From Marsupella aquatica (lineage: Eukaryota > Plantae > Marchantiophyta): a DNA stretch of 64,000 nucleotides. Of this stretch, positions 29,719-64,000 are shown in pieces. Numbering within the stretch: position 1 is the stretch's first letter; every line of letters begins with the position of its first letter. A program made the translations under genes and the position numbers. The notes beneath the pieces were generated by a model that saw only the letters and a list, made by a program, of their open reading frames with translations, was not told the DNA's origin and searched no databases. Location of the stretch: NCBI GenBank assembly GCA_973895155.1, contig OZ316891.1, positions 23,869,899 through 23,933,898 of the forward strand. Reading direction: 5' to 3'.

Positions 29719-29989
29719 GCTCCTCCTCTCCTGATTTCTCTATTCAACCATTTGCTGCGTGGATAGCAGCGTTGGAAGCGGCTTGAGCTCCTCTTTCCAA
29801 CGAGGTCAATTATAGCCGATTTGGTCAAATACACAGAAAGTTATGCCCCCGTAATCGAGAGGGGGTACTCACTGCTATGCTAACCCGAGTTACATAGCTA
29901 ACCCGAGTTTGGCTAACCTAGCTATCCTATCTAACCCGAGTAGAGCTAACCCGTGATCTCGGGTTAGGCCGCTACCCGCTTTCCGCTAA

Positions 29990-33942: not shown

Positions 33943-34221
33943 ACTAACCTAGGCTAAGCTGAGCCCGAACCCGAACTTACCTATGCTAACCCGAGTTCAG
34001 TCTAACCCGGGATCAATCTAATTTGAACCCGGGTTAAGCCTAAGCTGAAGCTGTGCTAACCTGAGCTAAGCTGAAGCCGTGCTTACCTGAGCTAAGCTAA
34101 AGCCGTGCTTACATGAGCTAAGCTGAAGCCGTGCTTACATGAGCTAAGCCGTGGCCGAGCTTAGGTTAACCCGAAACCGAAGCCGAATCCGCTAATTCTG
34201 GCCACAAGTTAACCCGTCACA

Positions 34222-35154: not shown

Positions 35155-35254
35155 TCTTCCAAGCCGGATCCGGCCATGAAGCCTTGGTACTTCCGAGTCT
35201 GCATAGCCGTAAAGCATGCATCCTCTTCACGTGCAAAGTGTAATTGCACTTCCA
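35155..35254 (-). repeat. Fragment of inverted family A-like LTR ORF (repeated in each array unit)
   Basis: EVQLHFAREEDACFTAMQTRKYQGFMAGSGLE matches the family A LTR ORF. Confidence 0.85.
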
Positions 35255-36658
35255 GTTGCAGCTCAAGAGGCTGAGCTTCTGCAACTACGACCCAAAGTTG
35301 CAGCCGCCAATAAGTTGTTAGCAAAGGCGCACGCCCTTACCGCCCTAGCCGAGTAGGCCAAAGCTGGGAACAAGGCCGAGATTTCATGGCTCCGGTCCCA
35401 GATTGACAGTTTGAAGAATCAAACTGTCATCTGGCAGAAAGACTTGGAGGAGGCCGAAGAATGGGCCCAGCGGGACACTACGGAGATAGCCATGCTACAA
35501 GCCGAAGTAGCGCGGCTTCAGACCAAAGCTGAGAAGCAGGACCAGTTGGTGGGCAAGCTGACAAGCAACGCCCAGCAGTTGGAGGAGGCATGCCAGGAGG
35601 CAGTGGAGGAGACGGACGCAGCGAAGTGAGAGAACGAATCTCTGCTAGACCAAGTCAAGCTCCTCAAGTCGAGCTCCTCAAGTCGGACAACGATAGACTT
35701 TGCAGGCAGCGGGAGGACCGCTCCCACTCGGGCGGCTCTGGCAAGCGTGCCAGATATTAGCGGTGGAGTAGGAATGGAATAGGGTTAGGAATAGCTAAGT
35801 CAAGCTATTGGGACAGGCACCTGCCTTAGTTACAGCAGCACTGCCATGCTGTCCAGCCTGCGTAGATTAGGATCTTCTAATAAGACAGCCATTTTTTGGC
35901 CTGACAGTCAGCTTAGTTAGGACCTTAGTCAGCAAATCTTTGGGCGGGAGGACACTCCATTCCTCGACCCTTAGTATTTAGTGCACCCCTCGGTAGAGGC
36001 AAGGGGGGGTTTTTAGTCTCAGAGTTGGACATCGGTGGTAGATGCGGGGAGTCCTGACCTCTGGGAGTGAAAGAGTACCAAGGGGAGGGGGGTAGGACTA
36101 ACCTCGCCGGGCGAGTGCGGAGCCGGGCTCCATTGTAGTGTACACCCTCGGCCTTGAACCTGTTCATTCCGGAGCTGTCGGGTCAACCAAGTGTACACTT
36201 ATGTCCCCTATGTAGTAAAATCCTTTCCCATTATTTCCTTCGTGTAAATCGAGATTGTATGCTTGTGCGCGTGTATGTGTGTGTGAATCTCGTGTATAGG
36301 TGACAACGCCGGGCCGAACGCACTACCCAAATCGTGCACGGGGTGCAGCTTGCGGGTATGTGGTTGCGAGCACGGGTTGAGGACCTGTATCATCGCATCC
36401 GAATCGAGGGCGGACAACATGAAGGCTTAGAAGTCCTTAAGCCGGGGTCGATCCTGCTATCGACTAAGGTACGTTCCGGCGGCGGAACACAAACCATACC
36501 TAGGAGGTGTCCGTATCTCACAGTAGGCGCACTTAGCGCTAGTTTACGTGAATTAGGTGCATTACGTTCTTTCCTCCCTGCCTGAACCCTCATATTTACA
36601 AAGGATGTGCCCATTTAAAGCTGAAGCCCGAGTTAAGGCCAAGGCTGATGACGTGACA
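35254..36658 (+). repeat. 5'-truncated family B LTR (3' 1.4 kb), repeated in each array unit
   Basis: Collinear with 32560-33942, ends GACGTGACA. Confidence 0.88.
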
Positions 36659-42600: not shown

Positions 42601-44806
42601 AATAGGGGTCATGCAGGAAATGTTTTTGCTCGTGCGAGTAAAATTTTTACTGTTTGCTTGCACGTTACAATTACCCCTAATCAGGCCATATCTTCCTTAA
42701 TACACCTCCGTTTCCCAAGTGTTATATATCAATTTTACTCGTCTTGACCAGATCTTTCCAATGCTCTTTACAGATCCGGATTTGGTGACGTATTGAAAGA
42801 GATATGGTTGCCGACCACCCGCAACATAGCTTTTATTTCCCTAACATTCTAAGACTAGACTATGAACCACTAACCCAAATAACAAAATGAAGCTACACAC
42901 CCAAGACATTTAGATTTCATCTTGAGCACAATCACCATACCCCACAGCTTCATATTCAGCTATGGAGACTCGCTTCCTTGAATTACCACGCCTACCTCCG
43001 TATCGGCGTCTTGAAGAGCCTCCATGCTCCATCTTGCTTGTCAAGAAGATGGTATGCTTGAAGAGCTGAATCCTCTCTTCCCCAGTTTCTCCTTTGTGGC
43101 CTTGACAATGACTACCTCAACTATGTTTGCCTTGGTTGCGCAATCTTCAAGCTGAAATACCTTTATCCCTACTCTTAACGCCATGATTGCCCTTATTCTT
43201 GCCAGCTTGCTAATTGTTATGTGGTATCAATAACTACTCCTTGCATATATAGCAACCTAGTTACTCAGATTATAGAACAAGGACCATGTCATCGGCGTCA
43301 CATCTTCCAAGCCGGATCCGGCCATGAAGCCTTGGTACTTCCGAGTCTGCATAGCCGTAAAGCATGCATCCTCTTCACGTGCAAAGTGTAATTGCACTTC
43401 CAGTTGCAGCTCAAGAGGCTGAGCTTCTGCAACTACGACCCAAAGTTGCAGCCGCCAATAAGTTGTTAGCAAAGGCGCACGCCCTTACCGCCCTAGCCGA
43501 GTAGGCCAAAGCTGGGAACAAGGCCGAGATTTCATGGCTCCGGTCCCAGATTGACAGTTTGAAGAATCAAACTGTCATCTGGCAGAAAGACTTGGAGGAG
43601 GCCGAAGAATGGGCCCAGCGGGACACTACGGAGATAGCCATGCTACAAGCCGAAGTAGCGCGGCTTCAGACCAAAGCTGAGAAGCAGGACCAGTTGGTGG
43701 GCAAGCTGACAAGCAACGCCCAGCAGTTGGAGGAGGCATGCCAGGAGGCAGTGGAGGAGACGGACGCAGCGAAGTGAGAGAACGAATCTCTGCTAGACCA
43801 AGTCAAGCTCCTCAAGTCGAGCTCCTCAAGTCGGACAACGATAGACTTTGCAGGCAGCGGGAGGACCGCTCCCACTCGGGCGGCTCTGGCAAGCGTGCCA
43901 GATATTAGCGGTGGAGTAGGAATGGAATAGGGTTAGGAATAGCTAAGTCAAGCTATTGGGACAGGCACCTGCCTTAGTTACAGCAGCACTGCCATGCTGT
44001 CCAGCCTGCGTAGATTAGGATCTTCTAATAAGACAGCCATTTTTTGGCCTGACAGTCAGCTTAGTTAGGACCTTAGTCAGCAAATCTTTGGGCGGGAGGA
44101 CACTCCATTCCTCGACCCTTAGTATTTAGTGCACCCCTCGGTAGAGGCAAGGGGGGGTTTTTAGTCTCAGAGTTGGACATCGGTGGTAGATGCGGGGAGT
44201 CCTGACCTCTGGGAGTGAAAGAGTACCAAGGGGAGGGGGGTAGGACTAACCTCGCCGGGCGAGTGCGGAGCCGGGCTCCATTGTAGTGTACACCCTCGGC
44301 CTTGAACCTGTTCATTCCGGAGCTGTCGGGTCAACCAAGTGTACACTTATGTCCCCTATGTAGTAAAATCCTTTCCCATTATTTCCTTCGTGTAAATCGA
44401 GATTGTATGCTTGTGCGCGTGTATGTGTGTGTGAATCTCGTGTATAGGTGACAACGCCGGGCCGAACGCACTACCCAAATCGTGCACGGGGTGCAGCTTG
44501 CGGGTATGTGGTTGCGAGCACGGGTTGAGGACCTGTATCATCGCATCCGAATCAAGGGCGGACAACATGAAGGCTTAGAAGTCCTTAAGCCGGGGTCGAT
44601 CCTGCTATCGACTAAGGTACGTTCCGGCGGCGGAACACAAACCATACCTAGGAGATGTCCGTATCTAACAGTAGGCGCACTTAGCGCTAGTTTACGTGAA
44701 TTGGGTGCATTACATTTGTCCCTCCCTGCCCGAACCCTCATATTTACGAAGGATGTGCCCGTTTAAAGCTGAAGCCCAAGTTAAGGCCAAGGCTGATGAC
44801 GTGACA

Positions 44807-45427
44807 GTTCTTACAAAATAGAAGATCGCCGAGTTTGTCGGTAGTAGGTATCCACATGAATTCAGCCATGATGAGTTCTCCTCCTAAGAAGGCAAACTTT
44901 TGCAGCTCCCACAGTTGAGCGAGCTCCTGCCGTTCCCGAGCGGCTCTCTCCGATTCTTCATCCTCGTAGGTCCCAATGTCCTCAGTTGCCCGTTCTAACA
45001 GGGATCCCCAAAAATGAGCCGCTTGATTGATGTTGCTCATACCCTCCTTGAGTTGATTGTCGGTACCTGCTCCCGCCCAGAGTGCTTGCCTAAGCAGCTG
45101 ACAGTAGTTGGCCTCCCGTAGTTGGCTGCTTAGTTCGTGCTTGCAAATGAGCCATCATTCCTTGCAATCGATCCTTACCCCCCCCGATTGGTCTTCCTTC
45201 CCGTTAGTTACCCATAGCCGTCGGCACTTAGCGCGCCCTAACCCTAATCGTGTTCCCTCCCCCGGTGTCCTTACTTCCGGCCTCGGCTTGGGTTCCATAG
45301 CCACCCTTAATTGTTTATATTTTCCATCTTTTTGCTACTATACTAATGTGTTTCCAGGTTCTACTCCTTATTTTATCATTTAAACTAGCCTAGTGACGGG
45401 CCTAGTGATTCTTGGCTAGGCATCATA
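44807..45427 (-). repeat. 5' end of an inverted, diverged family A-like LTR
   Basis: MSNINQAAHFW...LLFCK homology. Ends at TATGATGCCTAG, equivalent to LTR start TGTGATGCCTAG. Confidence 0.85.
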
Positions 45428-47358
45428 GTCTCCCCCTGAGACAATTCTTGAGTTTCAGCTTCATTTGAATCTCCAAGCCTCATTGTGCCTTCATTGATCA
45501 GATTGGTTGAAGAAAGATGACGTATCAACCCTTGCTCCTTCCATTTGCTCCATCTGTCCTCCCGGCGTTGTTGGATTGGGATCATCCTTGTCCAAGTTAT
45601 CATCAACTTGGACTTCATTGGGCCCCGGAGGGATGTCATCAAATCAAAACAAATGAACGGTTTGGTGCAAGTCCAATATCATCATCTACATCGTAAGGCT
45701 CATCTTGACCAACACGGTCATCCAAATTCTTGACATATGCCCCCTCTGATGCCTCTACGCCTTCAGCCACTTTGTTAGCAACATCTTGAGACTCAGAACC
45801 ATCAGATTCAACAGTGACAGCTACAACCACAACAGTGGTAGCCCATTGTTGAGAATTTTCAGCAAGTGATTCACAATGGGCTTTAAGTGAGGGAACTCTC
45901 TTGCAAAGGTAGGAAGCAAAAGCTCCACAAAATGCCTCTCGGACTGAGAGTCACAATAAACAAAGCATTCCCTATCATAAAAAAATGATGTCTTCATGAC
46001 TTGGCACCGAGAGAAAATCTAGAACCGAATCTCCCGGTTGTGACAAGGATTCAATAATCCTTTGGATCATCCGTGTGGGTTTGGCATGAGGATTAACCCA
46101 CCCTCCGCGACTGCCAACTATCTCAAATCGAGGGGCCATATTCATAATCTTGACGGCCTCTTTCGGGTCCAAAACTACTTTAAGGTTGTTGTGTTGTGTC
46201 CCCTCATCTGATTCCTTAGCCTTCCCCTTTCCCTTGTCGATCTTGCATACTTTGTAATCAACATCCTTTGAAGTATACAAGAATTTGGGCTTTGGATTGT
46301 TGGGCTTGAAAACTTCATTACAATTGACATCTTCATCTCGAGAAATCCCCGCAAAGATAACTTCTTCAATCCCCCCACCCCAACATGAGTCATGAGGGTG
46401 CGGTTGATCATCTCGGGAATAACTCCCATACTCAATGTGAATGGTCAAAGATTTCTCTTGTCCCAATTTACAAAGGGCACCATGGACATTCAGTGCAAGT
46501 TGTCTAGGATGAACTGTTATCGTCACAACGGGCATCACAACAATCGTTGGATTTTGTGGAAGCTCCACAATGTATTCAAAGAGAACAAGAATCTCTGCTT
46601 CAGTCCACTGTTTTTGCTGAAGCCGGCTAAAATCAACAATGGCAAGAGGGCAGGTCGGAGGAGCTTCTTGCAATGAATGACTCTGGATCAATGGTCTTCA
46701 TGAGATTGTCGCTAAAAAATGTAACCCATGGTAGGGTCCGAGAACGAGATCCTCCACCAAATTTTTGGCAGTATATATCATCTAGGTGGAATGCCAATGC
46801 CGTCGGCAAGATTGCGCTCTCCCGCGTATGATTTGGCTTTAAAAGGTTGGCAAGATAGACCTCGCCAGCGGCTCTTCGACACCTGCTGAACTCTGAATCA
46901 ATTGCTAGCGTAGGAAGAACCTCAACTACTTTCCCCCAATTAGTATTTGCCGGGAAATTCACCGCATCCTTGGTGCAATAGTAGTCTTCAATAAGGGACT
47001 TCAGTTTCCGCACGATCTTCACATCTTTGGCCAACTCCTCTATAGATGGCATGTCTGATTTATTAGAGGCATCTTTCTTTAGCAATACCTTTCCTGACTT
47101 CACCCGTGTCAGTATTCTTGTGATGTCTCTTGGTGAGATCAACTCACCATCAAAACAACGAAACATGGCAACAGTAATTGCTTTTTCAGACTTCTCATTT
47201 CCTTCTACCCCAGCTCCATCGGGAAGTTTTCCATCCAACCACAACTGGCATACCAAACTCCATAACTTAAAAAGAGCATTGTCCGCAAAAAGTAACCAGT
47301 ATTTAACATTTCAACAATCTTTCCTTTCCATGGTCATTCTTGCAAGAGCCAACCAATC
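45428..47358 (-). pseudogene. Decayed last exon of ParB/methyltransferase-like paralogue (outer DNA element)
   Basis: Frameshifted pieces homologous to 50724-53096 (TVAMFRCFDGE, CPLAIVDFSRLQQ, NPHAKPTRMIQ, PGDSVLDF). Acceptor TGTAG|GAT at 47359/47358. Confidence 0.85.
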
Positions 47359-47419
47359 CTACAATTGCAAAGGAAAGTTTGTTAGTTCTCCATAATAGTC
47401 ACGAAACTTGACTACCTTA

Positions 47420-48870
47420 ACACTTAGCTCCGGCGTCGTTGACTCCGACGCTGAGCTCCCTTATGGTCCAGGCCCAGATAGGCCATTCGGGGAGGACTTA
47501 GCATGGGGAGACTTGTGGGCATTGGGAAGTGGCACTGGCGAAGGCAAGGCGCCAAGCTGGTGACACTCACTAAGGACCTTGGCTAGCTGGGAGCTGGTCG
47601 GGTCACGGGGGATATGAGCTGGGCTCAAGGTCGACCATCCGGACCCCCGGACGGACTTTGAGTTCTGAGGGCTTGAGTGTGAGCTCCGCGTGGGCCCAAG
47701 GCCAATGGAGTTGACTCCATGGGCAACGGACACTTGGGGCGCAAGTTATGGCTCGATCCGGGTTGGGCCGATCGGGGCCCTGAGCGGCGATGAGACCTGA
47801 GGACCTAGGCATGAGCACTGGGTCGGCCCGGTCACAACGGGCTAAGGCACTCCATTTGCGGATGCCTAACAAGAGAGTTATAGGCGTTGCCAGTTCATGG
47901 CGCGCCCGTTATGCGAAATAGGATTCTAGTTGTATGCCAAATATTGAGGACCAAAGCTGGTCCGGGGGTGGCAGGTCTCCAGAAGCATATATGAGAGGAG
48001 TGGTGTCTCCCTGGGGGCCAAGGGCGAGCCCAAGTCGTGAGCCGCGGTGGTCGCGACACCAAGGGAAGACGCCAAACAAAAATGACGATATCTTCCCGTT
48101 GGAGGACTTCTTGGGTGCGTTGGAAAGCTCTCGAGGAGGGCTACGTCCTCCTGAGCTCAGCTGGGTCTGGAGGTGCCATGGTTTCTCGTGGGAAGTGGGT
48201 GTTAGCTCGCCCACTTGCCAAATCCCGTCGAACAGCAGCCAAGCCGCGTTCAGTCTCCCAAGGGAGCTTGCGTTGGGGAGGCAAGGCCAAGTAGGTGGGA
48301 GGGTGAGTCCCAAGGGTGCTTGGCCCTAGACCATCAATGGGGCGAACCGGGAGTTGGTTGCTAGAGCCGGGGCCATTCTGGTCCCGGCATATTGAGACAA
48401 GCTTTGGGGACAAGCTACGCTTATTTGGGGGCCATGAGCATGTCTTGAGGTCAAGGCGGTCAGTTGGTGATGGATAAGTACGAGGGGGAACCCGGGCCGC
48501 GCCCAAGGAAGGAGTTGTTCTGGACAAAAAATGGGCGTGGGTTCTGGTTCCGGCTTATGGCGTCGGGAGGACCTATCGCTGACCTATTACCAACGTCTGT
48601 TGAGCTTGAGTTAGGATGCTAGACTTGGCGAGTTCTAGATCCTGAGGGGTTACTTACCGAGGTGCTTGGTTGCTTGTGCAGATTGTGAGGACCGTTGAGT
48701 AACGGTTGTGTTAGAGAGACCAAGTGCGGCTTTGTATGGGAGGGGCCGCTGGTGGTGCAAAGAGCACTACTTAGGTGCTTGCTCGTGGTATTCCGTGGAG
48801 GCGTTCGGGCACCAGAGGCACTTAGGTGTGGGTGCCGGGATTGGTGAGGGCGTTGGGTGGCAAGGTCCAC
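47420..48870 (-). mobile_element. GC-rich insertion, possibly a heavily decayed tyrosine-recombinase (DIRS-like) remnant
   Basis: AAWLLFDGIWQVGELTP resembles YR box I (F.GFLR.GEL). FRITGA near 47900-47920 resembles HSFRIGA. Boundaries approximate. Confidence 0.3.
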
Positions 48871-48904
48871 CACTATAACTCATTTGTTTGAAGGCACTCA
48901 GGTG

Positions 48905-49029
48905 CGGACTGGGACCATCCCAGTCCAAAACAAAACTAGACAATATGAGTGGAAATATTCTACTGAATGTGCATGAATCCATTTGGACTCAGACCATCCC
49001 AGTCCAACACAAAACTAGACAATATCAGT
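48905..49029. repeat. ~77-bp intronic minisatellite of the outer element, continues at 62290-62430
   Basis: GGACTGGGACCATCCCAGTCCAACACAAAACTAGAC.ATATCAGTGGAAATATTCTACTGAATGTGCATG units on both sides of the insertion. Confidence 0.85.
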
Positions 49030-49080
49030 ATCAGCCTATTTATTAAAAGTGTATTTTCTTTTGTTCACAAATCAGTCTTG

Positions 49081-49170
49081 AAATGTACACTTTCATGTCC
49101 CCAAATGTACACTTTAAGAAACCCAAATGTACACTTTTTGGTCCCTAAATGTACACTTTTTAGGCCAAAT
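49081..49170. repeat. Left subterminal AAATGTACACTTT repeats (4 copies)
   Basis: Direct repeats at ~22-bp spacing. Confidence 0.85.
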
Positions 49171-49434
49171 CATATTAGTATTATATTAATAAATAATACA
49201 TATTATATCATTTATTGATTCACAAAGAATAATAGGATAGAGATCATTATTTATTAATTCACAAAGAATAGTAGGATAGAGATCATACTTATAAAAACAT
49301 TTCGGCACAAAGAAACCCTTGAATATGTGTGAACAAAATGACATAACTCCAAATAGATTATAAAATAATATACAATTATCTCCAAATTTACAATGTCTTT
49401 CTTCTATCTAAGGGGCTTAACATGAGTTAGATCT

Positions 49435-50600
49435 CTAAACAAAGTGCTCCTTACAATGTGTATTTGAGCACGTGCCCCTGTCTCCTTTACTATCTACCCT
49501 AGTGTCACGGTTGCAAGTCCCTTTATCTTTAGGGAGCTGAAACTTGGTGGTGTTGTTCCTAATGGCTATAATCTCCCGCAAAAAGTGTATGGGATTTTCT
49601 CTATGTGGACCTGAATAGTCCCTTCCTACAAATGCTTTAGCAAGTGACGTGACAAGTGCATCATCAAGTTCTGCCTCAGGACGTAAACTACATATACGAT
49701 GCTTCACGTTCCAAGGAATCTCATTGCTATTGAGGTCCAACACACTATGCATAAACTGTGACTTCCAAATTTTTGTTGCACATCTCTTACTAAGTTGATC
49801 ATAAGTAATTTCATTTTTTACCTTGTCTCTCTTTATGTGCAATAGAGACCACAGTGGAGAGTTAAGAAGAAGATAACATCTAATGTCACTTGCATGGGAT
49901 AGTTTCTCAAGACAAGGCCAAAGAATTGTTAGAAGAAAATTATCTCCACCATTGGCATGCGTGTAGGGCACTGGAAATAGTCCGGTCATGCTTGGGTTGG
50001 CAAATGCCTTAAGGGGGGAGTCATCCACAAGGAGGGTGTTGGTTTCATCATATAGATTTCCAAATCCACTCCATACCACCCGAAAATCCTTCAGTAGCAC
50101 ATTTGCCTTTCCGTTTGTAATGTCACGCCTTTGAATGCCTGTGTCAAAGGCTTCCACCTGTGTGAATACAAACTTAAGTTTCAACCGCTCCTCAGCAGTG
50201 AACATCATGTTCAGCATTTTCACTGTTCGATGTACCCCAGCACATGTCCAAATTGCAACGTCAAATCGGTCAAAAACTAACTTTAGAAACTCATGGAGCC
50301 CTGGCCTTTCTGTGTACATGCGACTAATTCCATTTTTTCTATCCCAATGCACTCCAGTTGGGGTCACAACATTTCTGGATTTGCCCTTGCTTTGGAATTC
50401 AACTGAATCCCAAAGTATTTTGTTAAGATCCAAAATCAGCAATTTGCGCTTGATGGAACAAAGTCTTGGTTCTGCAAGTGCAACAAATACCAATCTTAGA
50501 GAAAAAACCACATTTGAAGTTTGGATAGAGATCATCTCTGTCAACCCAACACAAGTGGCCAACCACAAAGAAAATATATCTGCATACTGATCGTATTCAT
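49435..50600 (-). CDS. FCP1/NIF-like HAD phosphatase-family protein (~349 aa if intron 50472-50587 is spliced)
   Basis: LLILDLNKIL, RPGLHEFL, VAIWT, LLKDF, NTLLVDDSPLKA motifs. Phase-compatible GT/AG with a 13-nt first exon (tentative). Confidence 0.8.
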
Positions 50601-50723
50601 TGAGAAACCGTAAAGAGGAGATGGATATTGATACTGATGCTCTAATTGTTAAACTTGAAGTATAATTATACAGACTATATTATATCAAATTGATAAGGTC
50701 ACATCGCTCAATCTAGACCTTGG

Positions 50724-53700
50724 CTAACAATGCGATCCATATTCATCAATCAAGATATCATCACCGAGCTCTTGTTGGATCTCATAATTGACATCGGAGG
50801 TACTCTCCTCTATCCAATAAGGTGCAGACCAAACCGGAGTTATCAATCCCAATTCTCCACTTCTATAAGTTGGATCTTTCTTGTGCTTTTTGTACGAGTC
50901 ATTGTTCAAAATTGATTGAGCAGCATCCAATGCAACTTCAGTTCCTACATCGGGTCCACTTTTCCACACGTAACATCGACAATCATATTCAAGTGACTTA
51001 TATCCAGTTGATCCTACTCTCTTCCCTTTCTTTTTTGAGAGGGGGAGGATAACGGGACTTCTTGATTGTGATCGAACAAACACCAATTTGTCATCAGAAG
51101 TGGAAAAGAGTGTATCGGGACAAATTGAAGCACCTGCCTGGTTGTCAGCAGTCGTGGATGCACTTGCTTCATTCACGGGAATGTCAGCTATTTGGATGGG
51201 CTGCGGTCTCAATCCCAATTTGTCGAGTTCATTGGACTCACCATGCCTCTCCGCACCTTGATTGAGAAGGTTGTTTGAAGACAGTTTTTCAAATGTATCA
51301 GCTTCCATCTCTTGTCCAGGCAATTGTGGATGGAGACCATCTCTATCCAAGTTATCATCATACTGGCCCTCGTTGGGTCCCATGGGGGCAACATCTGTAA
51401 TTGGTGAACTGCAAGGTGCAGATCCAACAATCATATCGTCTTCCACAAGGTCAATATTTTCACCCTCGCCAACTCGGTCATCCAAATTCTTCACGTATGC
51501 CTCCTCCGATGGCCCATCGTCTTTGACTGATTGGTCAGCTCCATCTTCTTGATCACCATCTGATTCATCATCAATAGCAACAGCGGCAGAAGAGGGTTCC
51601 CAATGTCTAGAACTTCCACCGACATAGCGATCATAACGATCTTTGATGGTGGGAACCTTCTCACAAAGGAACGAAGCATATGCTTCCACAAAATGTCTCT
51701 CATGTTGAGAGTCACAATAAACAAAACATTCACGTTGAGAAAAAAGGGATGCCTTCATCACTTGACCGCCAGAGAAAAAGTCAAGAATCAAATCCCCCGG
51801 CTCGGACAGTGTTTGGATGATCTTTTGGATCATCCGTGTGGGTTTGGCGTGAGGATTCACCCACCCACCCCGAGCGCCGACCGTCTCAAATCGAGGTGCC
51901 ATGTGCAGAAGTATTGCCGCCTCTTCTGGGGTCATCATATTTCTTAGATCTTCATGTAATGACTCCTCGTCCGCGCCCTTTGCCTTTCCCTTTCCCTTGA
52001 CCTTCTCAACCACAAAATCAGTATCCTTTTCACCGTACACCCATTTTGGCTTCATCTGGTTGGGCTTGAACACTTCATCCCAGCTGACGTTCTCTTCGCG
52101 AGAAATTCCCGTAAAGATAACTTCTTCTATTCCTCCCTTCCAACATGAGTCGTGAGGGTGAGGTTGATCATCTCGGTAATAACTCCCATACTCAATGTGA
52201 ATAGTCAGAGTTTTTGAATGTCCTAATTTACGAAGAGCGCTTAGGACATTCAGTACAAGGTAACCCGGATGGACAGTTATCATCACAACAATGGTGGGAT
52301 TCCGTGGTAGCTCTACTATGTATTGGAAGAGTACCAAAATCTCTGCTTCGGTCCACTCCTTCTGTTGAAGTCGGCTGAAATCAACAATTGCAAGAGGGCA
52401 TGTTGGAGATTGTTCTTCCAACGACTCCGGATCGACTGTCTTCATTAGGTTGTTACTAAAAAATGTGACCCACGGTTGGGTCCGAGAACTTGTCCCCCCG
52501 CCAAACTTCTGATAGTAAATATCATCTAGACGCATCACCAATGTCATTGGCAATATCTCACTCTCCTTTGTATGATTAGACTTCAATAAATTTGTCAACC
52601 ATACTTCACCAGCCGCTCTTCGGCACCTGTTCAACTCCGACTTGGCACCTAACAATGGGAGGACCTCAATTACTTTAACCCAATCACTATCTGCTGGGAA
52701 GTTTTTCGGATCCTTCTTGAAGTAGTAATCTCCAATAAGAGACTTCAGTTTGATCAATATCTTCACCTCCTTTGCAAAGTCCTCCATTGCTGGAACATCT
52801 GACTTATTTGTCGGATCCTTCTTCAATAAAACCTGACCTGACTTCACCTTGTTCAAAATTCTGGTCAAATCTCTACTTGATATTTCACCATCAAAACAAC
52901 GAAACATTGCGACCGTTATACCCTTTTCGGACCTTTTGTTTCCCTGTGTACCAGCTCCATCAGGAAGATGTCCATCAATCCACATCTGGCACACTAACCG
53001 CCAGAGCTCGAAAAGATCATTCTCGGCAAAGAGCAACCAATATACATTTTTCAAGTCTTTTCTCCCCATGGTCATCCTTGCCAATGCCAAATAATCCTAC
53101 AGTCAAAATTAGGGGAAAATAAGTTATCTACAATCAATGAGATTTGACAACAAACTATCACTTGCTTGTTGGACAGAGACCATCTCCATCCAAGTCATAA
53201 CTAAAAGTAAAAGGAAGAGAAATCTCTGGAATGGACGATGACACTCTTGGACAGAGATCATCTCCATCCAAGTCATAACCAAAAGTAAAAGGAAGAGAAA
53301 TCTTTGGAATGGACGATGACACTCTTGGACAGAGATCATCTCCATCCAAGTCATAACCAAAAGTAGAAGGAAGAGAAATCTCTAGAATGGACGATCACAC
53401 TCTTGGACAGAGACCATCTCCATCCAAGTCATAACCAAAAGTAGAAGGAAGAGAAATCTCTAGAATGGACGATCATACTCTTGGACAGAGACAATCTCCA
53501 TCCAAGTCATAACCAGAAATATATTGAGCTAAAATCAATGTAACGGACGGTCACACTCTTGGACAGAGACCATCTCTGTCCAAACAAGAAAAGTGTTTCT
53601 CACCTGAAATTTTTGATTCTCTTGGGCGTTTGACTTGTTGTCCCCGTGCTTTGGCTTTCTTGGTCCTCCGCATTCAAGGAATTGTTTCCTTGCATGAACA

Positions 53701-55984
53701 ATTGTATCTTTGAAGCACGATTGAAACACCATCGTCGAATTGATGGCATTTGATCTCATTGAGTGCTCAACCAATATAGCCGATGGTGTAAGGTCTGACA
53801 ATAATCTAGACTTCCTGTATTTTAACTTTTTTGCCAACACTGTGAGCTTGGCATCAGTTTTGGCCCATTCGAGAACCCACTTGGCCGCCCTAGCCGAATG
53901 TTGCCCACTGATGGCAAAGAAACCAATCTCGCCTTTCTTCACTCCTGCAAGAAAGTCTTTGCGGTCGTTCTCCGTGCTGTCAAAATGGAGCAACTTTCTA
54001 AGCTTCAGACTATAAGGAAGCAGGTCCGCGACGTGAGGTTCATGTCCGGGGTTTTTGACCATGGATTCGGCTATGTGCTTCACATGGGTACTACTGAGCA
54101 TCTTGTAACATAATCTTGCAGGTGCAGGCACAATTTTCTCCACTGGAATAGAAAACAGTTCATTTATCCCAAAAGTATAGTACTGCTCTATTCTCTGGAG
54201 AACATCATTTCCTTCTAAGACCTTCTTCTCCTTAGGGGCATCAAGTTTGTCTCCCTCATCTTCTGGGAGCATCTGTACGTCCGCAGGGGTTGACCACAAA
54301 AGAGACTTGTCAGTTTTCTGTTTCTTCGCTACTGGCTTCTTCTCGGGTTCCTTCGGCAATGTCTCAATTTTCTCGCGACCCTTCCTCTCTCTTAGTCTTC
54401 GCTTCCCTACCACTTGTTTGGTGCTTGTCCCAGCCGTTGTTCCTGCAGTCCCTGTTGTTGTCTCCTGAGATATTTTTCTAGGTTTGGGAACTTCTTTGGG
54501 AACTTCTTTGTTAACAACTACTGGAAGCTCGTTCACCACTACTAGTGCAACATTTGTAGGCTTGGGTAATGATTCTACCCACTTTTTTGCATTGTCCATC
54601 GCAAACTCCTCTGCAAATGCAATTTGCTTGTCAAGGCAAACACCTGATTCCGAAGATAGGAATCCTGCCTTGTCAAGCAAATTATTTAAAATCCATGTCA
54701 CCGGAAATGTATAATTCCCTTGGTGTTTATGGATATTCAGCTTCACATATTGGAACCCATACATGATGTCAAGTGGGAGAATCCCCTTCACTCCAGCAAT
54801 CACCTTTTGAGTTGAATACGACTTAGGGAAAAAGCCCATTGCCATCACGCCAAGTTCTCCAGCAGCAGACCACTCTACATTGAACTCTGAAGAATACGCC
54901 TTTGATGGTAGATGTAGCTTAACCCATCGTATCCTTTCATGGAGCTCAAGAATGATGGAAACAAACCCTCTTCCTTCAATTCCAATGAAGACTACAGGTC
55001 CGAGTACAAGAGTCTCTTGATCTTCTGTTCTGACCTTTATGCACAAAATGGGATCCCGTCTCTCTGACGTGCTAAGGAAATCAAAATCAACTCTAGAGAA
55101 CTCAAGGCCCCAACGAAAATCTGGTTTTCCCTGCTCCAACAAGACTCCCTCGGAGCAATCTGATTCTGAAATTGCTGGTTTCAATCCATTTAGATCGCTC
55201 CCTACAATAGTCCCATCCATGCATATTAGTTTGGAAAATCATAATTTGTAATCGACAAAGATGAGGTTCTCTCACAGTTTGGACAGAGATGATCCCTATC
55301 CAATTGGACAGGGATGATCTCTATCCTCTACTTGGATAGGGATGATCTCTGTCCAATTCGTAACAAAGATAATCTTTGTTCGATCAAAGGATTCTGACAA
55401 TCTTTATTAGGAATTGGACAGGGATGATCTCTATCCTCTACTTGGATAGGGATGATCTCTATCCTCTACTTGGATAGAGATGATCTCTGTCCAATTCCTA
55501 ATAAAGATCATCTTTGTTCGATCAGAGGATACTGACGATCTTTATTAGGAATTGGACAGGGATCATCTCTATCCTCTACTTGGATAGGGATCATCTCTAT
55601 CTAATTCCAAATAAAGATCCTCAGCATCCTCTGATAGAACAGTTTCGATGCTTTGGTTGGACATCCTCTATCGTCATTTTGGAAATAGATGATTCCTATC
55701 CAATTGGACAGGGATGATCTCTGTCCTCAGTTTGGACATAGATCATCTCTATCCAATTCCTAATAATGATCACTATCTTCTACTTGGACTCTACTTGGAC
55801 AGGGATGATCTCTGTCCACTGCACAAATATTCAACTTGTTACCAAGATACTTACTTGGATTGAGCAATTGGAAGGCTCTAGAATCCTCGAGGGCCGTGTC
55901 TACCACATCCTCAATGGAGGAGAGGTCTATCTCCTCTGTTGGCTCAACGACCAAAGACACATGAATAGGTCTAGATGGATCCAT
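50724..55984 (-). CDS. Three-exon ~1366-aa protein with ParB/Srx-like domain and C-terminal DNA N4/N6-methyltransferase-like domain (exons 55984-55855, 55201-53604, 53096-50724)
   Basis: Donors GTAAGT and GTGAGA, acceptors TGTAG, all phase-compatible. ParB-like IPVEKI...HVKHIAESM...FFAISGQHS. MTase-like HAKPTRMIQKIIQTLSEPGDLILDFFSGG. Confidence 0.75.
53165..53583. repeat. 78-bp intronic minisatellite (~5 units), each with the TTGGACAGAGA-NNN-TCTC..TCCAA palindrome
   Basis: Period 78 (53241 to 53319). Perfect 11-bp arms at 53559-53583. Confidence 0.9.
55279..55820. repeat. Intronic cluster of the same ~25-bp palindrome
   Basis: More than ten TTGGA(C/T)AG(A/G)GATGATCTCT(G/A)TCC copies. Confidence 0.9.
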
Positions 55985-56866
55985 CTTGTGACACGTGGTC
56001 GTATGGACACGTGGAGGATCACAGAGCGTTAGATCTAGGGCAATTAACGTGGCAGCTAGGGCAGAAACTCTAGTGTGAAGGCGGAGGTGGAGTGGAGACT
56101 GGAAGCGAATGAGGCGGAGGAGCGGAGGAGCGGAGGTGCAGGAGCGGAGGAGCGAAGAAGAGGAGGAGGGAAGAAGAATGAGGCCCAAGTGGGACCTCTT
56201 GCCTCCTTTACCCCCCCCACACCAAGGCGAGGCAAGGCCGACTCAACACGTGGGAGGCCGAGCTGCAAACCCTAAATGCAAGGCTGCGTAAATTGTGCCG
56301 CCCGACTTGGTTGTGTGGCGTGGGTGACCTAATCCACTCGACCCTAAACTCCGCCGCTGCTTAAGGCTGATCACGCATCGCCTTATCCGTAAGAGCGATC
56401 TTGAATGGTATAAGATACTTGGGCTGCTCCGGCTGGTCCTCATTTGGTATTTTCATGTCTAGATTTTCATTCAGTGTCTCAACCAGGTCCGTTCATTACA
56501 GAGCCCCATTGAGCCACTCTTGTTTTCTAGACAGAACATCTAGTTTTAATTTCTTCCACACCCCTGAAGCATTTAGTTTACCAGCTTACTGAGAACTACC
56601 CCTTCAACAAAGTATTTTATTACTTGGTTTGACAACATAAACTAAGTGAGTTTTGTGTTCAAGAATCATTTCCATTACAGGTAACTTTCAACTTAATTAT
56701 AGAATATTCCATTGGTATCAAATTTAGGAATTGTATATCTAAGTTACTTAAGGTTGGGGTATCCAGCCCAACTCACGATTGGGATCATCTCAATCGAACC
56801 TTTCTTTGGTCAAACATTAAATTAGTGTGTAGAGGTTAATTGTCCGTACAAGGGTCTGTCCACCGT

Positions 56867-57810
56867 TTGGATAGGGATGACCTCTGTGCACCGTTTGGAT
56901 GGGGATGATCCCTGTCCAAAGTTTGGATGGGGACATCTGATCTCTGTCCACCGTTTGGATGGGGATGATCACTGTCCGGCTTTTGGATAGAGATGATCCC
57001 TGTCCACCATTTGGATAGGGATGATCCCTGTCCACCATTTGGATAGGGATGATCCTTGTCTGCCAATTGGATAGAGATGATCCCTGTCCACCATTTGGAT
57101 AGAGATGATCCCTGTCCACCATTTGGATAGGGATGATCCCTGTCCGCCATTTGGATAGAGATGATCCCTGTCCACCGTTTGGATAGCGATGATCCCTGTC
57201 CACCATTTGGATGGGGATGATCCCTGCCCGCCATTTGGATAGAGATGATCCCTGTCCACCGTTTGGATGGGGATGATCCTGTCCGGCTTTTGGATAGAGA
57301 TGATCCCTGTCCACCATTTGGATGGGGATGATCCCTGTCCGCCATTGGATAGGGATGATCCTTGTCCGTCGTTTGAGGTATTTGCTTTATGGGACCCCAA
57401 TATGAAAGGTTTTACTTTCAGATAGGACCGCTGAGTGATCCTAAGTGATCCGGACCTTGAATCATCCATGTCTATTGTTTGGACAGTGATAGACCCTATC
57501 CGCCATTTGGACAGGGATCAGCTGTGTCCGCCATTTGGACAATGACAGACCCTATCCACCGTTCTGATAGGGATCATCCCTGTCCGGATTTTGGATAGGG
57601 ATGATCCCTGTCCACCGTTTATAGGGATCATCTATGTCCATTGTTTGGACAGTGATAGAACCTATCTGCCGTCTGGACAGGGATCATCCCTACCGAACGT
57701 CTAAATAGGGATCAGAGATCAGGGATCTTAGGGCTAGATAAGGATTGTTTAGGGACCTATTATTTTGCTTGATGGGGATGATCCCTATTTGCGCACTGTC
57801 CTTGGATGGG
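56867..57810. repeat. 28-bp tandem palindrome array (~18 copies to 57370, more degenerate beyond)
   Basis: Unit TTGGATAGGGATGATCCCTGTCCACCAT. Lies between candidate donor CAG|GTAACT (56681) and acceptor TGCAG| (57877). Confidence 0.92.
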
Positions 57811-57894
57811 GTTCACACCTATCTGCTTCCTAGTTGGGACCATTGTTAACTAATACCTTACATTTCAAATTGTGCAGGTGAACACGTTGTAGGA

Positions 57895-60800
57895 ATGACC
57901 GGAATATTTTTGAGAGGAGACAATGTGATATTGACAATTGGTGGTTACGATGTTGCAAGCGGGACAGTTCAAAAAATCAACCCGCAAGATAGTGTTCAAA
58001 AGATATTGTTGAGAGAGAATCGAATGGGCGTTCTCATTGAGAAAGTTTTTGACCGAACCACAAAACTACCATTTCCAATGCCTCGGGCAGAAAACCTTTT
58101 TGATGCCATTGATTCTTGCGTTATTTGGGATTTGTCTTGCGCATATCTATCAACGATAACAAATTCTCAAAAACGCATTAGTGTAGGTAGTTGTTCAAAT
58201 CGACCGGAGAGTAATTTGGAAAAAAATCCAATTGTAGAGGAGGACTCATCGACCACTCTAAGGCAAGGGGATGAGGTTGAAATGTTCATCTTTGGGTGTT
58301 GTGTAGCCCTTGGAGTTGTTTTCAATACAAATCCAATGGAAAGATGTCACAACATTTTACTTGGTGAATCACGGATCAGTGTGAGGGTCACTGATGTCAT
58401 TCATGGGAGTAGGGTTTTACCTTACAAACACAGCGGGGCTGAAACAATTGACGAAGCAAAAGACTCATGGGTTCTCTGGGATGTGGCAGATGTCCGAAGT
58501 AGAAAGAGTTTCTCAAAGAAGGATGCGGGCGATGATATCAACATAGAGCGGAGTTTTGTTGCGGAGTCTCCCTCAGCTGAAATTTCTAAAACTAATTGTG
58601 ACTATTTCCAACGGTCAAATTGGATGTTAGAGTTGGTCGAACTATACATCGGTTCAGATCGAACCAATAGGGTTGCCACGGGGACCATCACTGTGCCTCA
58701 AGAAACGGCGGTGGTTGACGATGAAATCCTTGGTGAGGACCATGTAGGGATTGCTGTGAAAGATGTGGTGGAATCACAATACTTTCCCAATTTCCATAGG
58801 GGAGTAATTACTTTGGTTCGGTGGCGGATTGATTCAACAAAACTACTTGCAAACGGGAAATTTTTGTCGGACATTTTGGTTGAAGGTTCAGAGAGGATGG
58901 AGACGGTGGATAGGGATGATCTCTATCCAAATGTAAATGATAGGGGAATGCCGCGCACAAGGCCATACAATTTCAACAAGAGGACTCATGTAGATCCGAT
59001 TGAAAGAAGAGAAGGTTGTTGGAAACCAAAGCAGTTTCAAAAACAACGGAAGCTTCGATTGATGAAATTAAAAGAGAGAATTGTTGCAAGCAGAAATGTT
59101 GTCTGACTATGCCAAGAGAAGACATAGAAGATATCCGGATAGAATTTCACGGGATGTCTAGCGAGTCAAAAACATCACACATTTTCAACCTCTTCCACTA
59201 CAGAGAAGATGATGTTCGTGATAAGGGGCACCATGTTCTCAAGGGTATGATCGTATGTAGACATGCATTTGCAATCATCCATGGCTTTAGTCACACGAAA
59301 TATTATGATTACAAAAGGAGATATGTGGAGGGTTGCAAAATTGGGTTCCATGGAAACACGGGCTCCATGAAAACAAGGTCAAATACCTTGCATGCACGAG
59401 CTCTGTTGGAGGATTTTTTGACTCAAAATGCAGAGCCCATGCCTCATATACCTTATGCTGGGGCTCATGGGACAGACTCCATTGAGTATCGTCTTCCAGC
59501 ATGTTATAAGAAGTTGGAGATTTTGGAAGATGTGAGAACAAAGATGAAGGAAGAGGGGCTTCCTCCAGTTACAGAGAATACTCTGTACAAGATTTGGAGC
59601 AAATCATTCGCAAACTTCAGTTTCCATAAAGATGGTGCATTTGCCAAGTGTACTCTTTGTTGTGAATACAAAGATAGTTTGATGCGAGAAAGAAGGAAAA
59701 AAGAGCGTGCTGAAATTGAAGAAAAACGAGTGCAACATCTTCGTGAGCAGATGTCACGTAGATATGTTTACTATGCTCATCGAGTGATGGCTAAGCAACA
59801 TCCAGGGGAATATCTTTGCATCATTCACGACAAGATGGATCAAGCAAAGACATGGATTCCAAAAATGGTCAGTACTCCTAAATCGCTTTCGGGTCATGGG
59901 ATGCCACTACCTATTGCTCTCACAGGGATGTTGACCCACGGAAGGGATCCAGGAGTCTATGCACACTTTAGTGTCATTGGCCTTTGGCCAGGAGATGCTG
60001 ATTTCACGGTGACATCCTTGGCTAAGTGTCTTCGAGACCTTGAAGAGTACAATGGAGACAAGACAGGTGACATGTTGGATGGCCTTTATTTGGAACCTCA
60101 TAGACCTTTCTTTCAAGCCCTTCTTGACTTTGATGCATTTTTTAAGGGATATTTGGAACCAAAGAGTATTCCAATGAATAGGTATATTGGTTCTGAAGAT
60201 GCAGCCGAGAGTCAGACGGAGACGGTCTCCACCCAACATGGTGAGGATCAAGGAGGGGACATGCATGGGGAACAAGGCAGTCCATCTTTCAAGCCCTTGC
60301 CAAGGCACCTAACACTGCAAATGGATAACTCAGCAAAGGATAACAAAAACCAGACTGTCATGGCATTTTGTAGTGAGCTTGTGAGTAGAGGAGTATTTGA
60401 AACTGTTCAAATGTCTTTTCTAATGGTTGGTCATACACACAAAGATGTTGATGCACTCTTTTCGAAGGTATCATATCAAGTTCAGCACAAGGAAGTTGCA
60501 ACTCTCCTTGCTCTTATGGTAGAGGTTTGGGAATGTGAGAGCATTCATCCAGTTCCCAGATTGATACAAGAAGTTGCATCTTACAAAGAATATCTTCAAA
60601 CTTTCAAAGTTAAAGATATTCAAGGTCACTCAAAACCCGTATCATTTCTTTTCTCTATGAGAGATAATGTACCAATATTTCAGTATAAGTCCCATGTAAA
60701 GCAAGCTTGGGCTCCAGTTGGAGGAAGGTGCATTTGGGCAATAGATCTGACAACAAATTCTCTTCTTTTACCTAGTGGAGAGCCCTTAGCTAAATTCATT

Positions 60801-61637
60801 GGAGAGATACACAAAAAATCTGAAGAGATTATCCCATTTCTTAACAAGTACCTTGATTTTTTGAGAAGGAGTTGCACTGATGAGACATCTATAGCATATA
60901 AGGAAAGATTTCCTCTTGTGAAATATTGGGAGAGAATTGTGGAGTTGTTGACAAATGGGCTTGCACTAGAAGGGGAGGGAAGTACTCAATTTCCCTTGAA
61001 AAATGGATTTTGGCCTAAGACTAACCACGGCACTGGTTACAAGGTCAACCAACCGGAACAAAGTGGTCCTCCAAGTGAAGATGAGAAGAATGCGGAGATG
61101 ACGGCTCTTCAAAATGAGGTCTTGGAAGAGATGGAAGATCAAGCAGCACCATTTGTTGGATCTCGAGCTGAGAGAGAACAAGGACGGTGGATTCCCCTAC
61201 AGGATATTCGTGAAGGGAACTTTGTATTTCTTCGACCTGAGGATGACTGGGAGAATAAAAATGGTGGAGGTCATTTTTGGTTGGTGAGAGCTTTGGGTTC
61301 GGTGGACCCTAAGCATGAAGTCCCAACTACATCTCCAACAAACCCTCCTATGCCTCACCAATATGCTCCAATGTTTCCAGTTGAATGGTGGAGGCCTAAA
61401 CACTCTAAACTTGATGTGACTGAGAGTGCACGGTATCTAAACTGCTTCATGTCCACTAAGACATGGGAACGAGATCCAGGGTTTGGTGAGAACGCTCAAC
61501 ATTGGCAATATGCAAATTCTGCAATGTATGGTTTTAAATCTGGCATGAAAGAAGAAAACATGGCGGGTAGAGGTTTGAAGATTCCTCGAAGTGTTCTACA
61601 AACTGTCCAAAGTTATCTCCAAAGGATGGACAAGTAG
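57895..61637 (+). CDS. Sola-like DDD transposase, split by a frame change near 59005-59020; N-terminal part has three repeated small domains
   Basis: CCKQKC, VCRHAF, KCTLC, IIHDKMDQAK, LQMDNSAKDNKN, FLMVGHTHKDVDALFS motifs. N-terminal VAxGxV..L....V....LP...A...V.W repeats resemble En/Spm Tnp1-associated domains. Confidence 0.8.
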
Positions 61638-61924
61638 ACTTAGTTGTTACTTGCGAAGCTATAATAATTAAATTAATTTAGATAGTTACTTACCTAGTTT
61701 TTATGTAAATAGTCGACACTCATTCAAACATACTAACTTACGTACTAGTTATTTACTATTCTAATAGTTTTAATGTGAGACCATGTCATTGAGTGTTAGT
61801 TATACTATCTCCTCATTTTCTAAACTTTTGATCATTATGAATATGAATGTTTGCTTTTTTGCATAATTAAAAATATTTTTCTATTCATTCCTTTCTTTTA
61901 AATGATTATAATAAGATTTGGTAG

Positions 61925-62252
61925 GAAAATATACACTTTTTAGGCCAAATGTACACTTTGTTGCACTCAAAGTTACACTTTCTAGACCAACTGCACTTAA
62001 ATGTACACTTTTTAAGCCAAATGTATGTTTCTTTCACTCAAATGTACACTTTCTAGGCCAAATGTACTCAAATGTACACTTTTAGAGCCAAATGTACCTA
62101 TTTTGATGTTCAAATATACACTTTTTATTGTCCAAATGTACACTCTTTAGGCCAATTGTACACTTTTCTATCCCCAAATGTACACTTTTCATTGGCCAAA
62201 TGTACACTTTTCCTCGCCCAAAAGTACACTTTTCATTGCCCAAATGTACATA
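61925..62252. repeat. Right subterminal AAATGTACACTTT repeats (>12 copies)
   Basis: Direct repeats at ~21-23-bp spacing next to the TIR. Confidence 0.88.
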
Positions 62253-62502
62253 AATCAAATAATAATACACTTTTAATGAATAGGCTGATCAGTGGAAATA
62301 GTCTATTGAATGTGCATGAATCCATTTGGACTGGGACCATCCCAGTCCAACACAAAACTAGACGATATCAGTGGAAATATTCTACTGAATGTGCATGTAT
62401 CCATTTGGACCATCTCAATCCAAACCAAACTTGAAGCTTTGTGTTCAAAGACTACCATGAGAGTCTACGGTATTGTACCCATCAAGCAGTAACACTTCGT
62501 AC

Positions 62503-64000
62503 CTGAAATTTTTGATTGTCTTGAGCATTTGTTTTGTTGTCCCCATGTTTTGGCTGGCTAGGTCTTCCACATTCCACAAATTCTCGCCTAGCATGAATGA
62601 CTGTATCTTTGAAGCATGACTGAAACACCATCGTGCTATTGATAGCATTAGATTGCATTGAATGCTCAACTAATATTGACGATGGTGTTCGATGAGATAA
62701 TATTCTTGACTTTTGAAATTCCAGCTTTTTTGCCAATGTTGTTAGCTTGGCGTCCTTCTTTGCCCATTCTCGAATCCATCTGGTTGCTCTGGCCGAATGT
62801 TGATTGCTAATGGCAAGGAATTGAACCTCGCCCTTTTTCACGGCTGCTACAAAGTCCCTCCTATCTGATTCCGTGTTGTCATACTGCATTAGGTTTCTAT
62901 GTTTTGCAGTGTAAGGAATCAAGTCTACTATGTGTGGTTCATGCCCCGGATTTCTTATCATGGAATTGGCCACATCCCTTACATGGTCTGCATTCAACAT
63001 TCTGTAACAGAGTCTTGCCGACACAGGGAAAATACTCTCTACGGGAATAGAAAATATCGAATTGATCCCAAACGTATAATATTGTTCCATTTGTTGCAGT
63101 ACCTCATTACCTTCTAAGACCTTCTTCTCCTCAGGAGCATCCAACTGCTCGTCCACATCTTGTGAATGCATTGTCTGGTTTTTTGTAGTGTCATCCATGA
63201 TGGCACTGTTAATTTTCTGTTTCTTCTTCTGTCTTGGCCTCTTTTCACTTGCACTCGGTTTCTCAACCGGATGTTTCTTCTCAACCGGCTTCTCAACTTG
63301 GCTTCTTGTGCTCGGCTTCTTGTACTCGGCTTCTCGTACTTGGCTTCTCGTACTCGGCTTCTCAACCGGCTTCTCCACTGCAAGTTTCTTCTCAACCATA
63401 AGTTTCCTTTGGCTTTGTTTTTGTTTTCCCATTGCTCTTTGAGAGGTCGCTGCTGTAGTTCCCGCGGTCTCAGTTGTAGGTTCTGGAGCTTTCTCTGGCG
63501 CTTGCTTAGGCTCAGGGTTTGTATTCACCGCTGGAAGCTTTCTCGCCTTGGACAAAGATTCTATCCATTGCTTTGCTTTGACTGAATCAAACTTGGAAGC
63601 AAATGAAACATCCTTATCAATTAAAACACCAGGCTCCTCCAAATCCAACAATAACAATCCAGCTTTCTCAAGTAAATTGCTTAACGTCCAGGTAGTTGGA
63701 AAAGAGAAATTGCCTTGGTGCTTCATCATGTTGAGTTTCAAATATTGAAAATTAACCCATACATAATGTCGACTAGAAGCATACCAGTTACCCCGTCGAC
63801 CAACTTCTTTGTGTCATAGGTCTTTGGAAAAAATCCCATTGACAAAACGCTCAATTCCCCATTTGTGTGCCATTCGACATTGAATTCAAAGGAGTATGCC
63901 TTTGACACAAGGTTAACTTTAACCCAACAGGACCTATTGTGCATCTCCAGAATGACCAATTTCATCCCTCTCCCCCCAATGCCAACAGAGACCACAGGTC
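62503..64000 (-). pseudogene. ParB-like exon of the outer element's paralogue (frameshift near 63745; continues beyond window)
   Basis: Homologous to 53604-55201 (EQYYTFGIN, ARLCY, AISNQHSAR, NQKFQ). Donor CAG|GTACGA at 62503/62502. Confidence 0.85.

Follow-up and report, generated by a model that had tools for sequence, protein, structure and literature searches.

A Sola-like liverwort transposon with a divergent gene of predicted ParB and methylase folds and a candidate set of cognate 25-bp palindromes

Does a eukaryotic DNA transposon encode a DNA-binding protein together with the sites that the protein reads? The question is raised by a 64,000-nucleotide stretch of the Marsupella aquatica genome (contig OZ316891.1, positions 23,869,899 to 23,933,898), referred to below as the window. 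The preliminary description proposed that a protein resembling bacterial ParB and amino-methyltransferases binds palindromes of its own element to mark, protect or reactivate it. The reading that we prefer, tentatively and at somewhat less than an even chance, is that a Sola-like transposon carries a divergent helper of ParB fold and methylase fold in which both standard enzyme motifs have been lost, and that this helper would bind the element's own 25-bp palindromes, keeping the element transcribable.

The sequence at 49030–62289 is a complete cut-and-paste DNA transposon, Sola-like and about 13.3 kb long. The claim of a transposon was borne out by terminal inverted repeats (TIRs), a CAGT duplication and a DUF7869 transposase; TIRs accompanied by a 4-bp target-site duplication are features of Sola (Sola1) elements. 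DUF7869 is, we assume, linked to Sola transposons, and three candidate acidic motifs were found in the transposase. The features of this layout are as follows.

49026–49029, plus strand: left target-site duplication CAGT, with the identical four bases at 62290–62293
49030–49055, plus strand: left TIR of 26 bp, 25 of 26 bases matching the right end (one mismatch)
49081–49159, plus strand: four subterminal repeats AAATGTACACTTT, probably transposase sites
55985–56500, unstranded: GC-richer interval between the divergent genes, a likely shared promoter
57895–61637, plus strand: transposase gene (Pfam DUF7869, E = 9e-43), with three N-terminal repeats followed by the DUF7869 catalytic region
61927–62232, plus strand: twelve subterminal repeats AAATGTACACTTT at the right end of the element
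62264–62289, minus strand: right TIR, pairing with the left 26-bp TIR

The subterminal AAATGTACACTTT repeats are likely to be a separate motif serving the transposase. Many diverged copies extending along the whole element are present in all four DNA runs (two organisms), and positions 1–45384 of the window contain retrotransposon arrays. In the interval 56000–56499, GC is 0.55 and CpG observed/expected 0.75, against 0.34–0.42 in the flanking array bins; across the inner element copy CpG observed/expected ranges from 0.06 to 0.85, and an escape from methylation is not clearly visible from CpG content.

The divergent gene had been put at about 1366 amino acids, a length recovered here from three predicted exons that are separated by GT..AG introns, run opposite to the transposase gene and join into one 1366-residue open frame.

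55855–55984, minus strand: predicted accessory exon 1, 130 bp from the ATG
55202–55854, minus strand: predicted intron 1
53604–55201, minus strand: accessory exon 2, encoding an N-terminal domain of unknown family, a linker and the ParB/Srx-like domain
about 53670–54230, minus strand: ParB/Srx-like domain, with SGQHS at 53895–53909
53097–53603, minus strand: predicted intron 2
50724–53096, minus strand: accessory exon 3, encoding a helical region (possible helix-turn-helix), the methyltransferase-like domain, a disordered linker and a small C-terminal domain
about 51627–52454, minus strand: beta-class methyltransferase-like domain, with motif IV DFSR at 52371–52382
49435–50471, minus strand: FCP1/NIF-like (HAD) phosphatase exon (Pfam NIF, E = 2.5e-15; TIGR02245, E = 7.9e-14)

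The splicing is predicted from the sequence. All nine homologues recovered with a ParB-exon profile end or diverge at one common intron position, which coincides with the predicted intron. The ParB-like and methylase-like parts are joined in several Riccia gene models, and homologue P0174 has both in a single unspliced frame. The named homologues are all from liverworts, Calypogeia fissa (44–57% identity) and Riccia sorocarpa; the others among the 30 homologous proteins that were looked up come from metagenome or run assemblies. A profile search of 1.84 billion proteins gave 189 at E ≤ 0.001, the best 150 of which were listed. As for the FCP1/NIF-like exon, its DxDxT motif reads DLNKI, its candidate upstream partners are a micro-exon of its own at 50588–50600 or an alternative donor near 51133, and in two Riccia gene models NIF is joined to the methylase-like domain.

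The proposed ParB and amino-methyltransferase folds were both encountered by structure search, Foldseek included, using a model of the unspliced homologue P0174 (695 residues, 82 aligned rows, mean pLDDT 93), which stood in for the window's own spliced protein. The methylase fold is strongly supported by this model. In its C-terminal domain P0174 resembles beta-class amino-methylases, CcrM among them with Z 17.7, rmsd 3.6 over 217 aligned residues and a Foldseek E of 5e-7; against CcrM, RsrI, PvuII and MboIIA, Z values of 14–18 accompany a permuted Rossmann fold in which the motif order IV...X, I is present. The 10 best matches in an atlas search are all in the beta-class amino-methylase family, with scores under 0.9, and the window's methylase-like domain itself matches Pfam N6_N4_Mtase (E = 9.5e-6).

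The ParB/Srx fold is moderately supported by the same model. Structural ranks 21–27, following 20 methylase rows, are PadC, KorB, SerK, a plasmid ParB-N domain, sulfiredoxin, SbnI and Atu1540, all of which we take to be ParB/Srx-fold proteins. They score Z 7.5 to 5.3, which the tool terms middling, and all fall on the N-terminal domain of P0174, residues about 5–197; PadC aligns over 99 residues with Z 7.5 and rmsd 3.7. KorB (Z 6.9, 144 aligned) reaches model residue 321 and thereby the helices at 206–250, with an rmsd as high as 12.5, and it is from this single high-rmsd alignment that we call a helix-turn-helix possible in the helices that follow the ParB domain. Phage ParB proteins match P0174 at E 2e-8 to 1e-3, the top viral match being a 494-residue phage ParB/Sulfiredoxin protein with 709 columns aligned (E = 2e-8). 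Several other searches were negative within their scope. Pfam returned no ParB match among 25 proteins, and DndB in just one of the 25 (E = 0.052); the ParB exon folded alone (four sequences) gave a pLDDT of 48 and no meaningful structural match; a further structural search had methylases alone among the matches listed; the ParB part gave no relevant match to solved structures by sequence and nothing relevant against plasmids or NCBIfam; and comparison with a plasmid ParB profile set, too low in diversity, did not recover even the ParB domain. Fimbrial matches of the ParB part were rejected as repeat artefacts.

Neither domain has kept its textbook enzyme motif. The catalytic (D/N/S)PP(Y/F/W) of motif IV is absent from 56 of 56 family proteins that span it, none of which has a proline there, and the window reads DFSR; a bacterial enzyme among the matches, P0159, was left out of this count. 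At the position of the ParB GxxR arginine, assigned from the motif pattern and the fold, arginine is found in none of 20 aligned rows and serine in 19, the motif being of the type SGQHS. That arginine was required for nucleotide binding in the ParB-fold proteins tested, according to the available text of 10.1101/2025.10.10.680097. As both motifs are lost, DNA marking by methylation and CTP-driven spreading of the parS type are unlikely in textbook form. The protein domains are nevertheless under purifying selection: between the inner and the outer element (see below), dN/dS is 0.12 for the ParB, 0.10 for the helical and 0.20 for the methylase region.

The palindromes are as plentiful as had been stated. 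The original pattern, allowed up to three mismatches, occurs 39 times in the window, 36 of them within the element, whereas 100 shuffles averaged 0.00; a slightly looser pattern with up to four mismatches finds 48 in the window and 44 in the element, and none in 1–45384. The 44 comprise six in intron 2, 12 in intron 1, 22 in the 5′-UTR intron of the transposase gene, one before the NIF exon and three in coding sequence. The arrays do lie in predicted introns, as had been claimed; the three coding-sequence sites do not fit that description.

50521–50545, unstranded: lone palindrome, located in the predicted intron that precedes the NIF exon
51326–51350, unstranded: palindrome inside exon 3 (linker), with a homologue in the outer element at 45571
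53169–53583, unstranded: six palindromes with a 78-bp period, accessory intron 2
55279–55819, unstranded: 12 palindromes, accessory intron 1
56867–57697, unstranded: 22 palindromes, mostly with a 28-bp period, in the predicted 5′-UTR intron (56681–57877) of the transposase gene
58906–58930, unstranded: palindrome in the transposase frame
60212–60236, unstranded: degenerate palindrome in the transposase frame

The coding-sequence palindromes number three against 0.025 expected, with a pattern that had been tuned on these very sites. Many palindromes have GATC at their centre. Arm position 6 is C or T about equally and, when C, is mostly in a CAG or CTG context; as a speculation, this would fit the decay of a methylated CHG, or else a 5mC-tolerant reader. 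A scan of viral sequences for the palindrome gave 0 stretches, and no related loci were found in metagenome contigs by ParB alignment or in viral contigs by methylase alignment. Among the carriers listed for the family there was no RNA data set. Three single palindrome matches in metagenomes, being without homology to the element, were taken as chance.

The site has a history that can be followed across the insertion. The inner element is inserted into the intron-2 palindrome array of an older, related outer element (dS 0.9–1.8), and its empty site is one unit of that array.

45549–47363, minus strand: outer element exon 3, decayed, 72% DNA identity
48904–49007, unstranded: outer intron-2 palindromes of the TTGGACTGGGA arm variant, left of the insertion
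62326–62350, unstranded: outer intron-2 palindrome, right of the insertion
62482–64000, minus strand: outer element exon 2 (ParB-like), continuing past the window end

Palindromes are conserved between these old subfamilies and differ by subfamily variants, and the expectation that they vary between subfamilies was thus upheld, in the inner/outer comparison and at 50521. Inner and outer intron-2 palindromes agree at 19–20 of 25 bases, as against 24–25 of 52 in the spacer (Fisher p about 0.01), and among the places where they differ, 7/19 and 9/17 have changed as pairs. Such paired changes can also come from arm-to-arm correction, so that two elements are no proof of co-evolution with the protein. 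At the 50521 site, diverged copies in three of the four runs carry arm variants, and the flanks cease to align. Five of 25 places are substituted there, a rate not below that of the flanks (10 of 49, 50472–50520); what is informative at this site is only that substitutions fall at degenerate bases, together with the loose contig ends. Tandem non-coding motifs that differ between families, a trait of VANC-type targets, were found in two full elements and in contig fragments.

How might protein and palindromes act together? The accessory gene would descend from a phage-type ParB–methylase fusion, and a dimer would recognise the symmetric palindrome, probably using the helical region that follows the ParB domain. 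Bacterial ParB carries a helix-turn-helix in the region after its ParB domain. If bound to the sites that flank the shared promoter and are spread over the element, the protein could shield the element from host silencing. It would do so by occupancy or by recruitment of host factors, and not as a writer of 4mC or 6mA, on the analogy of VANC for VANDAL and of VirB against H-NS. Subfamilies would keep separate protein-site codes, and the transposase would use the different, subterminal repeats. A bolder version, which we regard as doubtful, is that liverwort transposons have made out of a phage-derived ParB–methylase fusion an anti-silencer that is catalytically dead and sequence-programmable, a eukaryotic counterpart of VirB. 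It would read 25-bp palindromes by subfamily-specific codes, tolerating C/T (perhaps 5mC) at the arm CHG position, and its FCP1-like partner would act on the machinery of transcription. If true, VANC-like anti-silencing would have arisen a second time, independently.

Other readings of the palindromes have to be weighed against a protective helper. They could be the sites of the transposase gene product, bound through its three N-terminal repeats in the manner of TnpA of En/Spm, leaving the ParB–methylase-like protein some other role. These repeats weakly resemble the En/Spm TnpA-type family (Transposase_23, E 0.002–0.07, below the cut-off), the largest palindrome array occupies the predicted intron of the transposase gene itself, and transposases can be sequence-specific activators, as the available text of 10.64898/2026.08.24.746577 describes. 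We nevertheless judge this rather unlikely, for the transposon ends bear another repeated motif, AAATGTACACTTT, and in red algae inverted-repeat arrays adjoin the ParB-like gene across families (10.1101/2025.02.11.637652, available text).

The accessory protein might instead bind the palindromes as a repressor or copy-number brake, with KorB-like autoregulation, or as a scaffold for pairing the ends. KorB and PadC are the nearest ParB-type structural matches and ParB relatives such as KorB can repress; moreover, the arrays flank the shared promoter and the enzyme motifs are gone. Set against this are the very many diverged copies in all four runs and the build-up of tandem intronic arrays, which resembles that of VANC targets (PMC5735166, available text); neither point is decisive against repression, a role that we consider unlikely.

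Methylation by a non-standard active site of the methylase-like domain, with 4mC or 6mA written at the palindromes or close to them, appears to us quite improbable. The full beta-class fold is there, with an invariant motif IV aspartate (43 of 43 rows), an intact motif I (DFFSGG), a conserved motif X lysine and the selective constraint noted above; the aspartate and motif I would be compatible with non-standard catalysis, and 4mC is in use in liverworts (10.1101/2021.02.12.428880, available text). However, the catalytic-motif prolines are missing throughout the family, whereas active Marchantia enzymes carry TSPPY (same source), and the central GATC is missing from the intron-2 and outer palindrome variants.

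It is likewise quite improbable that the palindromes are RNA hairpins of the pre-mRNA, acting in splicing or processing, or are functionless beyond tandem amplification and arm-to-arm correction. In favour of this reading, every array falls inside a predicted intron, many of them no more than 80 nt from a splice site, intron 2 has a folding z of −8.3, and unpaired positions read on the sense strand are G-U more often than A-C in intron 2 (10 versus 0) and the transposase intron (37 versus 14). Against it, in intron 1 the bias is reversed (7 versus 12), array copies are not independent, palindromes occur in genes of both strands and in coding sequence, and most arm positions keep base identity, and not pairing alone, across a dS above 1.

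A ParB-type accessory protein binding its own element, as in our preferred reading, has already been published as a hypothesis for algal transposons (PMC12477816 and 10.1101/2025.02.11.637652, available texts). Sola1-1_Ec32 of Ectocarpus carries on the opposite strand a gene for a 1104-residue ParB and N4C/N6A methylase protein, for which self-binding and self-modification were proposed (PMC12477816). In the text available, it shares with the liverwort element a large DDE design, a 4-bp target duplication and an accessory gene of ParB-like and methylase domains opposite the transposase strand. It is 21.5 kb long with a 282-bp TIR, as against 13.3 kb and 26 bp in the land-plant element; the liverwort family lacks the methylase catalytic motif and has an additional FCP1-like exon, and the likeness is drawn from the description of the Ectocarpus element. 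The main text of PMC12477816 nowhere uses 'palindrom'.

In Bostrychia, the Plavaka gene PAG3 is a ParB-like accessory gene beside tandem inverted-repeat arrays, for which the VANDAL analogy has been drawn (10.1101/2025.02.11.637652, available text). The liverwort transposon likewise unites a ParB-like accessory protein and tandem inverted-repeat arrays, but the PAG3 system has an EnSpm/Plavaka transposase, a ParB domain fused to a 2OG oxygenase, a methylase on a separate gene and arrays adjacent to the gene. VANDAL elements of Arabidopsis also combine an accessory gene, VANC, with family-specific motifs amplified in tandem in introns and non-coding parts (PMC5735166, available text). In that source the VANC motifs are 8–9 bp and non-palindromic, the element is of Mutator type and the function of VANC is shown, whereas that of the liverwort protein would follow by analogy; a Pfam search matched no VANC-related family.

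The order ParB, helical region, beta-class methylase and the use of palindromic sites recall phage and plasmid ParB–N6/N4-methylase fusions. Unlike these fusions, and unlike ParB, KorB and VirB, the liverwort protein has lost the GxxR arginine and the DPPY-type motif, and its gene has eukaryotic introns; its site is 25 bp with a 3-bp spacer, parS 16 bp. VirB is a ParB-family anti-silencer (PMC10676424, available text), and different clades of ParB-linked methylases are described in the available part of Iyer 2016. Beta-class amino-methylase folds of bacterial origin are also present in eukaryotes as MpDN4MT1 of Marchantia and N4CMT of rotifers; these retain SPPY and are active host enzymes, and we saw no sign that the liverwort accessory gene descends from them.

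New here are the land-plant lineage, the family-wide loss of both motifs, the intronic sites with subfamily variants and the extra FCP1-like gene. A literature search, whose reach excluded most subscription papers and bioRxiv supplements, returned no paper on such elements in liverworts, and in the literature searched there was no test of the role proposed for the algal ParB-type accessory genes. Our argument for the liverwort branch is that the standard form of the published 'self-methylation' model is untenable there. With this family come one defined protein, one long and well-defined palindrome and variant pairs made by nature, and its hosts belong to a group in which Marchantia is a genetic model. 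Were a protein able to open chromatin at a site of 25 bp, epigenome work would gain a precise tool. Lastly, the inner element's transposase has a frameshift near 59002, a feature that, like the outer element, the FCP1/NIF-like exon, the three coding-sequence palindromes and both motif losses, the preliminary description had passed over; copies in three of the four DNA runs have one more base at that place.

The 49030-62289 element, a cut-and-paste transposon with a DUF7869 transposase, sits within a palindrome array belonging to a related transposon, the older outer element that surrounds it, with junctions of the insertion at 49026-49030 and 62289-62293. Features of the two elements, in window coordinates, are as follows.

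47420-48895: GC-rich insertion of 1.5 kb within intron 2 of the outer element
49435-50471: FCP1/NIF-like phosphatase exon carried by the transposon, its motif having the unusual form DLNKI
50724-51133: small domain at the C-terminus of the accessory protein, which in many homologues ends with a conserved motif resembling 'DEYGS'
54560-55200: N-terminal domain of the same protein, conserved and about 200 residues long

The GC-rich insertion has no counterpart elsewhere in the window and contains no palindromes.

The transposase of the window copy, in which a frameshift near 59002 is the first sign of damage, differs from nearly all other copies compared at base 60441. This position falls in the third acidic motif of the enzyme, and the difference is a second sign of damage.

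The terminal domains of the accessory protein, the predicted ParB-like and methylase-like product of the minus-strand gene, were compared with known families. The N-terminal domain had no match in Pfam, and the family search with the C-terminal domain returned nothing except a weak match to Integrase_p58_C. The FCP1/NIF-like exon may belong to a separate gene, with a first exon of 13 bp, or may be used through alternative splicing; two gene models from Riccia join an FCP1/NIF-like domain to the methylase-like domain.

Window positions 1-24000 are a head-to-tail retrotransposon array, in which nearly identical copies of a 10,884-bp unit lie in tandem. The unit has the coding frames expected of an LTR retrotransposon (gag/protease, RT-RNaseH, integrase) together with a long coiled-coil open reading frame of up to 1229 residues. 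Portions of six related units at 28400-45200 resemble this 10.9-kb unit in inverted orientation. Five of the six recur with a period of 2716 bp, each of the six contains an internal 26-bp tandem repeat, and the region looks heterochromatic or centromere-like.
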